Shown piece after piece: positions 31,529-33,115 of a DNA stretch of 33,115 nucleotides. The position numbers and the translations under genes are program-made. The stretch lies in NCBI RefSeq assembly GCF_003334385.1, contig NZ_QOWN01000049.1. The stretch is one strand, 5' to 3'. Within the stretch, counting starts at the first letter, position 1; the number at the start of each line of letters is the position of its first letter. The notes under the pieces are model-generated. The model ran no database searches. It was given only the letters and a program-made list of their open reading frames with translations, and was not told the origin of the DNA. This DNA is from Escherichia coli (GTDB lineage Bacteria > Pseudomonadota > Gammaproteobacteria > Enterobacterales > Enterobacteriaceae).

Positions 31529-33115
31529 CACAGAAATACAAAACCATTATCACCACTGAGGGCCGCCGGAAGCTGGCCGAAGCCCTGAAGCCCGGTGGAA
31601 AAAAAGTCACCCTGGCAAAGATGCAGGTGGGCGACGGCAACGGCCAGGAAGTGGAGCCATCAGAAGGGCAAAAACAACTGGTGAAAAAAGTCTGGGAAGG
31701 GAATATCTCCAGCATCACACAGAATGCGGAGAATGAAAGCTTTGTCACCGCAGAGCTGGTTATTCCTGCTGACCAGGGCGGCTTCTGGGTGAGGGAGATT
31801 GGGTTATTCGATGATGAAGGTGCCCTGATTGCTGTTGGCAACGTAGCAGAAGGTTACAAACCGAAGCTGGAGGAAGGTTCAGGTCGGGAGCAGGTATTCA
31901 GGATGGTTATTCTCCTGAGTAATATTTCTGCGCTGAATATTAAACTGGATCAGTCAGTTGTCATGGTCACAAAAGCCGCTCTGGAGCAGGCCATCAAAGA
32001 ACATGAAAAAAGCGGCACCCACCAGTCTGCATCCACAAGCACAAAGGGATTTGTGCAACTGAGCAGTGCCACCGACAGTGACAGCGAAGAAACAGCCGCA
32101 ACCTCTAAGGCCATCAAAACGCTGAAAGGAATGATTAATGAAAAATCTTCAGTCACTGACGCCACGACCAGCCAGAAAGGCATCGTCCGGCTGAGCAGCG
32201 AAACGGGCAGCGCCGCCGAAAACGCCGCTGCAACACCAAAGGCAGTCCAGCTCACCATGCAGAAAGCCACTGAAGCTGAAAAACTGGCTGAACAGGCTAA
32301 ACAGAGTGCACAGGCAGCAAGTGAGAAAGCCTCAACACTGGAGCAACAAATCAATGCCACAAACCAGACCGTACAACAACTTCAACAGTCAACACAAAGC
32401 GGAGCACAGAAGGCGAAATATACCGCGCTGACCGTTGATCTCAATACACTGGGAAAACCAGAACACCACGGGGATTACTATCAGTCGGCCAATAAAGATG
32501 CAACCACCGCCATGCACTACCCCGTTGAACAGGCGGGATACCTGTCCGTGAAAATGGGAGCCTGGGGTTTCTGTCAACAGGAATACACTACATGGAACCC
32601 CATCAGGAAGTTTGTCAGGGCTGTCAACGGTAATTTCACCGGAAATGGTCCATGGACGGACTGGAAGGAACTGGGGGCCGAGGGGCCAGCGGGTCAACAA
32701 GGACCTGCCGGGCCGACGGGACCGACGGGGCCGCAGGGGAACACCGGACCACGAGGTTTGCAGGGAGAAACAGGAAGACAGGGCCCGACAGGTCCACAGG
32801 GCCCGACAGGTGAAACCGGACCACAGGGACCACAAGGGCCAACCGGAAGGCTGGTACCCGGGGAAATTTACAGCATCGGAACATACATTATTGCCGCACT
32901 AGGCCCGTATATAACCGACATCGGCAGAACCTATCAGCCAGGAGAAACTGTATCGGGTTCACGCCTTAAGCGATGCGCCCTAATCAAAGACGAAAACGGA
33001 AACTATATGAAAGCTAACACCGATGGCATTGACGGCAAACTATCCTCAGTTCCGGGCTCATGGATGGTGTGTAATGAAATTACGTCGACAAATGACAATG
33101 AAGGCATCGGGCTGT
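31525..33115 (+). CDS. H: Tail fiber protein, P2 gpH family (3' end outside window)
   Basis: Open frame from ATG 31525 to the window end with no stop; N-terminal [20 protein letters not shown]...[40 protein letters not shown] parallels the conserved P2 H N-terminal domain as recalled; contains a collagen-like block. Confidence 0.85.
32683..32844 (+). repeat. Collagen-like Gly-X-Y repeat block (18 triplets) within the tail fiber gene
   Basis: In-frame translation [55 protein letters not shown]; the nucleotide unit cagggcccgacaggt recurs. Confidence 0.85.

Follow-up and report, generated by a model that had tools for sequence, protein, structure and literature searches.

The 33,115-nt stretch of Escherichia coli DNA that was analysed (contig NZ_QOWN01000049.1; hereafter the window) ends inside a P2 gpH-type tail-fibre gene, and this gene carries a genuine, non-random collagen-like stretch of Gly-X-Y (GXY) triplets that marks the module boundary between a conserved shaft and a swappable tip. 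Three homology junctions with lambdoid fibre genes were located, all of them in register and all of them inside the GXY block. We consider it probable that the block acts as a trimeric collagen rod of ~17 nm and that it also provides in-frame homology for tip swapping and slippage.

The left end of the window carries an integrase and host genes, so that the locus is a P2-type prophage within a chromosome like that of E. coli. The RefSeq annotation of a locus that is 99.5% identical over 5.6 kb names the genes located 5′ of the fibre as P2-type V, W/gp25, J-like and 'phage tail protein I'. The translation of 31525-33114 on the plus strand is the open 530-codon fibre ORF, and the gene is 98% identical to 535-aa RefSeq fibres. 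The features of the fibre gene, and the gene that precedes it, are as follows.

30809-31528, gpI gene, directly upstream of the fibre gene
31525-33115, plus strand, P2 gpH-type tail-fibre gene, which runs past the window end (5 codons and the stop are missing from its 3′ end)
31525-31974, plus strand, N-terminal tail-collar fibre domain, baseplate-attaching (aa 1-150; Pfam PF12571, E=7e-51)
32032-32280, plus strand, two Phage_fiber_2 repeats (aa 170-200 and 214-252; Pfam PF03406, E=6e-13 and 2e-9)
32239-32400, plus strand, Pro/Gly-free, Ala/Gln-rich heptad segment of 54 residues (aa 239-292)
32410-32673, plus strand, knob-like globular domain of 88 aa, non-repetitive (aa 296-383), directly 5′ of the GXY block
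32674-32853, plus strand, collagen-like block of 20 uninterrupted Gly-X-Y triplets (aa 384-443)
32854-33115, plus strand, distal tip domain, small and mostly beta (aa 444-530 of 535)

The gene was classed as P2 gpH-type on its PF12571 N-terminus and its site directly after gpJ/gpI in the baseplate operon. Residues 1-245 of the fibre are ~50% identical to P2 gpH and 186 K, and no similarity to P2 gpH was detected by tblastn beyond aa 245. The earlier sequence-only reading had placed a collagen-like segment within a tail fibre, and this assignment was borne out by the N-terminal domain, by the identity to P2 gpH and by the site after gpV-W-J-I. The same fibre was present, at 96-98% identity, in 14 of 5426 complete E. 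coli genomes, many of which may be clonally related, so that they would stand for few independent events. At all eight related loci a gene for a 200-aa DUF4376 protein begins 17 nt after the fibre stop, i.e., beyond the window. This protein matches the tail PHROG 1141 (E=1e-77), and it is the expected tail-fibre assembly chaperone.

The sequence-only reading had reported 18 GXY triplets, proline-rich at X, at 32683-32844. These triplets lie at offset 0 within the fibre ORF, and 12 of the 18 have Pro at X; the uninterrupted run exceeds them by one triplet on each side (GAE and GRL), which gives 20 triplets in all. A Pfam scan returned a match to PF01391 (Collagen) over aa 384-441 (E=5e-9). When the whole window was scanned in six frames, the block was the only GXY run of five or more triplets, and the longest run elsewhere had four. 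Mononucleotide shuffles of the window (n=200) gave a maximum run of 5 triplets and codon shuffles of the fibre ORF (n=2000) a maximum of 6, versus the 20 observed. Across the 20 triplets Pro occupies the X position in 12 (60%), and at the Y position there are 8 Thr, 7 Gln and 2 Ala residues, with no Pro and no Lys. The G+C content of the block is 0.69, versus 0.51 in the rest of the fibre gene. Of three ORFs that overlap the block in other frames, one is on the minus strand (32389-32835) and two are on the plus strand (32612-32902 and 32652-32813); all three are Arg/Pro/Gly-rich read-through of a stop-poor periodic sequence and were not taken as genes.

Regarding what precedes the block, the conserved N-terminal domain and the coiled-coil segment of the earlier reading were both recovered, but the coiled coil does not adjoin the block directly, since the 88-aa knob-like domain lies between them. 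The segment aa 239-292 is the longest stretch of the fibre without Pro or Gly, and in one heptad register hydrophobic residues, mostly Ala, occupy 12 of the 15 a/d positions, a pattern that probably denotes a trimeric coiled coil. It resembles the 'PCoil' of PMC3368898, which is poor in Leu, Val and Ile. The knob-like domain shares 61% identity with a protein listed by NCBI as 'pyocin knob domain-containing protein', and it is kept in relatives with different C-termini; no match to it was found in Pfam, NCBIfam or PDB sequences. Word-indexed homologue searches with the tip and with the knob returned few sequences. When the sequences of solved structures were searched with the whole fibre, with the tip and with the knob, the only matches were collagens at the GXY region, BclA (1wck) among them, and Mu gpS at the fibre-repeat region.

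The host-range-determining distal domain had been thought to lie outside the window, and here the earlier reading has to be revised, since 87 of the 92 tip residues (aa 444-535) are encoded at 32854-33114. In the eight relatives that were fetched (529-541 aa, with the C-terminus '...NE[GS]IGLFQRAY') the CDS ends 17 nt past the end of the match, and thus the window is short of only 'FQRAY' and the stop. The tip is probably the receptor-binding end of the fibre and may set the host range. Lambdoid phages that bear the same tip form plaques on E. coli C and K-12, but the J protein may suffice in those phages, so that plaquing on these hosts is uninformative on the role of the tip. No match to the tip was found in Pfam, NCBIfam or PDB sequences, and there was no Pfam match after aa 441. 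The tip is narrowly distributed: it occurs at 86 places in 28 of the 5426 E. coli genomes, each genome that has the P2-type fibre holds 3-8 copies, and it was also found in 8 of 50,697 phage records and at 14 IMG/VR loci. A search of 1.8 billion representative proteins yielded only relatives of >90% identity and weak matches to large, multi-repeat Ig-like proteins (5-14 bits per repeat), to whose repeats Pfam gave no name; the Ig-like hint for the tip is unproven. A first AF2 model of the monomeric tip, built from 13 near-identical sequences, had a pLDDT of 42 and was set aside.

The claim that the block marks a recombination-prone boundary was substantiated by the distribution of divergence on its two sides. 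When the stem (31525-32673) was compared with those of eight orthologous prophages, 3-5 of 1149 nt differed (0.3-0.4%). In the tip (262 nt) of the same eight prophages, 2-4 nt differed in two and 14-17 nt (up to 6.5%) in six. The tip of the window is identical at 261 of 262 positions to that of a side-tail-fibre-like gene of the lambdoid phage PhiR5_1, and lambdoid copies in several E. coli genomes match it equally well (261/262). Furthermore, the divergent P2-type tips have many variant positions in common with lambdoid tips of the PhiR5_2 type. The tip alleles thus do not follow phage type, and such a pattern calls for exchange on more than one occasion.

The junctions with the lambdoid fibres were located by a right-aligned, triplet-by-triplet comparison together with the start points of megablast alignments, and they fall in two regions of the block.

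32736-32748, plus strand, homology junction A, from which PhiR5_1-type lambdoid fibres are ~98-100% identical up to the window end
32800-32827, plus strand, homology junctions B and C, with PhiR5_2-type fibres and with a third lambdoid type (locus L013, strain G1/2)

At junction A, where the megablast alignment starts at query position 1212 (window 32736), the last 12 triplets of PhiR5_1-type fibres are essentially identical to those of the window, and upstream of the junction these fibres carry unrelated collagen sequence. Identity to PhiR5_2-type fibres covers only the last 4-5 triplets (junction B, ~32800-32812), and that to the third lambdoid type only the last ~3 triplets (junction C, ~32818-32827); the corresponding megablast starts, at 1285 and 1294, are window 32809 and 32818. 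The position of the junctions within the block could partly mirror detectable homology instead of a raised crossover rate. The Chi pattern GCTGGTGG had no match in the window, so that there is no evidence of RecBCD-stimulated exchange, and only sequence homology points to a hotspot.

On the distal side, the tract of 98-100% identity between the P2-type prophage of KY204 and PhiR5_1 starts within the block, spans the tip and the intergenic spacer and reaches ~245 nt into the chaperone gene; past this point, still outside the window, the identity in the chaperone gene is ~70%. Tfa-type chaperones bind the tip of the fibre through a variable N-domain and trimerise through a conserved C-domain (PMC9608196). 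The exchanged cassette may accordingly be read as a co-adapted unit of the tip and the tip-binding domain of the chaperone, bracketed by the collagen repeats and by the chaperone C-domain, with the chaperone N-domain presumably travelling with the tip because it binds it. In a wider and only tentative proposal, the GXY block would pair with the conserved 3′ half of the chaperone gene as two homology arms, the cassette would move among co-resident prophages of different morphology (one P2-type myovirus and two or more lambdoid types of siphovirus), and the receptor-binding tips would thereby undergo concerted evolution in polylysogenic lineages of E. coli.

Modularity is also apparent in the wider family. 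Relatives with the same stem (82% identity over ~aa 1-390) bear other C-termini. In one such group 'ELGAE|VPAGVPLPW...' leads into a Collar PF07484 C-terminus, with divergence right after 'ELGAE'; in a second group a remotely related tip is joined straight to the knob; and in a third a fibre repeat and a coiled coil are followed by a remotely related tip. In further relatives a longer collagen region precedes a tip of 80% identity, and in still others the collagen is followed by a tip that is unrelated. In all 26 tip-bearing fibre genes examined, a GXY run of 18-50 triplets stands directly before the tip and ends in GPQGPTGRL or GPQGPAGRL. The sequences of these relatives point to the collagen region as one of several interchangeable trimeric spacers, and as the one that always accompanies this tip.

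The number of triplets varies among related prophages, in line with the comparison that the earlier reading had proposed: the eight RefSeq orthologues have 18, 19, 20 or 22 triplets, three IMG/VR P2-type contigs have 19 or 20, and a 17-triplet allele was found among the members of a 499-sequence protein cluster, so that the overall range is 17-22. Indels were placed at the DNA level for the alleles of 18-22 triplets. Every indel placed in this way is a multiple of 9 nt (9 or 18) and lies on a tandem duplicate that was detected by TRF or is visible, as follows.

32710-32727, plus strand, indel hotspot 1, tandem GGRCCGACG (Gly-Pro-Thr), 2 copies in the window and 1-4 in relatives
32782-32808, plus strand, indel hotspot 2, GGCCCGACA GGTCCACAG GGCCCGACA (GPT-GPQ-GPT)
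32818-32835, plus strand, indel hotspot 3, GGACCACAG GGACCACAA (GPQ-GPQ), a GGACCACAR pair with one or two copies in relatives

At hotspot 1, where TRF reported a period-9 array (32709-32729), strain G1/2 has one copy of the unit, KY204 three and S792 four. At hotspot 2, in a period-18 array (32770-32810), 18 nt are absent in UCPROB-002, EC2 and SW071611. A search for direct repeats at seed 8 over 32600-32900 found none; the 9- and 18-nt duplicates became visible by TRF and by triplet-wise comparison. The suggestion that the repeated unit promotes slippage agrees with this coincidence of short DNA repeats with in-frame gains and losses of triplets. The changes are always in frame, and this is length variation, not phase variation.

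The variation in triplet number bears on two other explanations. Rod length could be adaptive, tuned to the depth of the receptor under O-antigen or capsule layers and not a product of neutral slippage. The spread of 17-22 triplets among prophages whose stems are at least 99.6% identical would fit such tuning, as would the occurrence of the same tip on lambdoid collagen runs of 18-50 triplets; but the P2-type range is narrow (~4 nm), and the indels sit exactly on the tandem duplicates, as a mutational process alone predicts, so that we consider this explanation rather unlikely, though it is the most credible of the alternatives. Much less credible is a contingency locus in which slippage frameshifts would switch the fibre on and off. 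The protein P0001 (Logan assembly) does begin in another frame across the block before it rejoins the collagen frame, and the lambdoid copy L012 is annotated as a fragmented pseudogene, but the repeat units of 9 and 18 nt are divisible by 3 and thus keep the frame, the differences are of whole triplets throughout the eight RefSeq genomes, the three IMG/VR contigs and eight cluster members, and there are no homopolymer or dinucleotide tracts. Phase variation at this locus is therefore highly improbable.

Two further explanations concern the nature of the block itself. A Gly/Pro-rich stretch might be a flexible or disordered linker between the knob and the tip that forms no triple helix, and it is true that the 7-10 collagen residues that open each construct had a pLDDT of <50 in the monomer AF2 models, and that the block lacks Pro at Y of the kind that forms hydroxyproline. 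This explanation is nevertheless improbable, since Gly recurs at every third position over 60 residues, with no exception in any of the alleles examined (17-22 triplets), the indels placed on the DNA all comprise whole triplets, a constraint that disorder would not need, and the block stands between two globular domains of an obligately trimeric protein; in addition, the Col domains of closely related E. coli prophages form thermally stable triple helices (PMC3368898). A host-mimicking adhesin module, comparable to Streptococcus Scl1/Scl2 or Legionella Lcl and of benefit to the lysogen and not to the virion, is the least plausible of all. Lcl, SclA and SclB are among the NCBIfam matches, and lambdoid prophages with the same tip encode Eib-like proteins of the YadA family downstream; but the scores fall below the cut-offs (NF046116, Lcl, 47 bits versus 500; NF038330, SclA, 38 versus 400; NF038329, SclB, 32 versus 325), only the GXY region is covered for Lcl and SclA, there is neither a signal peptide nor an anchor, and the gene is the positional and sequence orthologue of P2 gpH within the baseplate operon. 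The window fibre would share with Scl1/Scl2, Lcl and B. anthracis BclA a hydroxyproline-free bacterial collagen helix with a C-terminal globular trimer, and it differs from them in that only the GXY region matches and in that the cellular context and the function are distinct.

The trimeric collagen rod that we favour has its closest counterparts in EPclA-D, the collagen-like fibre proteins of EHEC prophages (Ghosh et al. 2012, PMC3368898). The EPclPs are trimers with a collagen helix that is thermally stable by CD and biophysics; they have an Ala-rich coiled coil and a C-terminal trimerisation domain, they occur in several copies per genome with a Col length that varies by whole triplets, and recombination between co-resident prophages has been suggested for them (PMC3368898). 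Their Col domains span 27-322 aa, and the 60-aa block of the window lies within this range (PMC3368898). The window fibre resembles them in its Pro-rich X position, its Thr/Gln/Ala-rich and Pro-free Y position, its whole-triplet length variation, its probable Ala-rich coiled coil, its Phage_fiber_2 repeats and its C-terminal globular domain. It differs from them in several respects: the Y position of EPclA-D contains Lys, whereas that of the block does not; a Pfam scan found PF12571 in place of the lambdoid Stf N-domain PfN (PF08400) of the EPclPs; EPclA/B types end in PfC (PF06820), which the window fibre lacks, its tip being a different domain; and a knob-like domain stands ahead of a single short Col, unlike in the described EPclPs. 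The lambdoid exchange partners fit the EPcl family, with an EPclC-like architecture, and the distal third of the block together with the tip is 98-100% identical to them at the DNA level. On its sequence, then, the window protein is best described as a P2 gpH-type fibre that bears the distal collagen-and-tip part of EPcl-like proteins.

P2 gpH and 186 K, each with a gpG-type chaperone, are alike to the window fibre in their position after V-W-J-I and in the chaperone gene, which lies directly 3′ in the full-length relatives. The window fibre differs from P2 gpH in its C-terminal 150 aa, which consist of the collagen and the tip common to lambdoid prophages; to our knowledge, P2 gpH is without a collagen-like block. 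The fibres of P2, Mu, P1 and lambda are reportedly mosaic at their C-termini, with exchange between P2 and unrelated phages. In Streptococcus thermophilus phage antireceptors, as far as later accounts relate the work of Duplessis and Moineau 2001 (via PMC5601072, PMC7242381), collagen-like repeats flank the host-range region VR2, and such repeats have been proposed as phage recombination hotspots for the exchange of specificity regions (PMC7242381, PMC5601072). Both systems place GXY-coding repeats between domains of a receptor-binding protein. The likeness is one by description, the streptococcal case concerns another host and phage group, and at the window locus the junctions were mapped directly and join myovirus-type with siphovirus-type fibres. 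A literature search on the PhiR phages found nothing relevant.

These observations can be brought together in a model of how the block may work. The collagen helix has a standard rise of 0.286 nm per residue, and at this rise the 20 triplets would form a triple-helical rod of ~17 nm; that the block folds into such a helix is suggested by its regularity and by its relatives. In a homotrimeric fibre of the P2 gpH type this rod would link the conserved shaft, made up of the collar domain, the fibre repeats, the Ala-core coiled coil and the knob, to the 92-aa tip. At the DNA level, a GGN-CCN-NNN periodicity is common to the block and to the collagen regions, far longer, of the side tail fibres of lambdoid phages, so that any in-register crossover would keep both the frame and the helix. 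The block would thus be the left homology arm of an exchangeable cassette made up of the distal collagen, the tip and the first ~245 nt of the DUF4376/Tfa gene that follows (the tail-fibre-assembly gene), and the more conserved 3′ part of the chaperone gene would be the right arm. In addition, the 9- and 18-nt tandem duplicates would allow whole triplets to be gained or lost by slippage or unequal exchange, which would shift the length of the rod and keep the frame.

Collagen-like fibres of E. coli prophages, their length polymorphism and fibre mosaicism are already established. The locus is a compact natural case of tail-fibre specificity modules moving between unrelated temperate phages, with in-frame homology offered by a collagen-coding repeat on one side and by a conserved chaperone domain on the other. 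For phage engineering, the GXY run suggests a splice point at which tips may be placed on P2-type or lambdoid shafts with the trimer register undisturbed.

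The host chromosome occupies the left end of the window, within the 1-5343 region, and the end of the prophage is marked by a tyrosine integrase gene. This gene, its neighbour and a large ORF of the late-gene region are as follows:

1592-4036, minus strand, DmsA-family DMSO reductase gene
4336-5343, minus strand, tyrosine integrase gene, next after the DMSO reductase gene
25516-27486, plus strand, 656-aa ORF of the late-gene region, with a match to PHROG 143

The match of the 656-aa ORF to PHROG 143 ('unknown function') had an E value of 3e-297, and NCBIfam and PADLOC gave no match to it. 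In P2 the tail genes carry on along the same strand. In the related P2-type prophages (loci L003-L010), by contrast, a small tail protein gene and the tape-measure gene come next past the chaperone gene (the tail-fibre assembly gene that directly follows the fibre gene) and lie on the opposite strand; the prophage is P2-like in gene content, but it is not fully collinear with P2.

The collagen-like Gly-X-Y block of the fibre gene is also crossed by three long ORFs in other frames or on the opposite strand:

32389-32835, minus strand
32612-32902, plus strand
32652-32813, plus strand

The products of all three would be Arg/Pro/Gly-rich, and for this reason the ORFs appear to be a side effect of a periodic sequence with few stop codons. 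Protein P0001, a database entry from a Logan assembly, begins in the frame of the 32652 ORF and is later back in the collagen frame, which implies that, in the source sample, either the copy is frameshifted or the assembly is wrong.

When the alleles of the tip, i.e., the distal domain of the fibre, were compared, the amino-acid differences were found to be grouped in a few patches, and the remainder of the tip was invariant. The variable patches are:

residues about 468-476, window about 32926-32952
residues about 487-501, window about 32983-33027
residue about 516, window about 33070-33072

The patch variants observed were stretches of 10, 26 and 16 protein letters (not shown), and further variants were DGK, DGN and DGR. 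The variable patches are candidate receptor-contact loops.

In the chaperone gene, which lies outside the window, the P2-type version (L004, 5625-6227) and the lambdoid version (L001, 4417-4995) were 98-100% identical only in the first ~245 nt, and about 70% identical past this point. This break coincides with the boundary expected from the division of Tfa proteins into an N-domain and a C-domain (PMC9608196).

The same tip is carried by lambdoid prophages of E. coli S792, KY204, G1/2 and UCPROB-002 (L011-L014). Downstream of their chaperone gene, at a distance of ~0.5-0.8 kb, they have a gene annotated as 'YadA C-terminal domain-containing protein', whose putative Eib-like product resembles the Eib immunoglobulin-binding proteins of the P-Eib prophages; the collagen-like fibre type EPclC is listed in P-EibA (PMC3368898). 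E. coli JNEC-KY204 has a lambdoid fibre gene (L012, 1262-2137) whose annotation is that of fragmented pseudogenes, despite a tip identical to that of the window at 261 of 262 positions. This gene may be a donor or recipient copy that has decayed; alternatively, its long collagen repeats may have been misassembled.

The tip was found at 86 places, yet in only 28 of the 5426 complete E. coli genomes, and each of the 14 genomes that have the P2-type fibre carried 3-8 copies of it, distributed over different prophage types. The presence of many copies across prophage types in so few genomes suggests a lineage-restricted, concerted spread of one tip.
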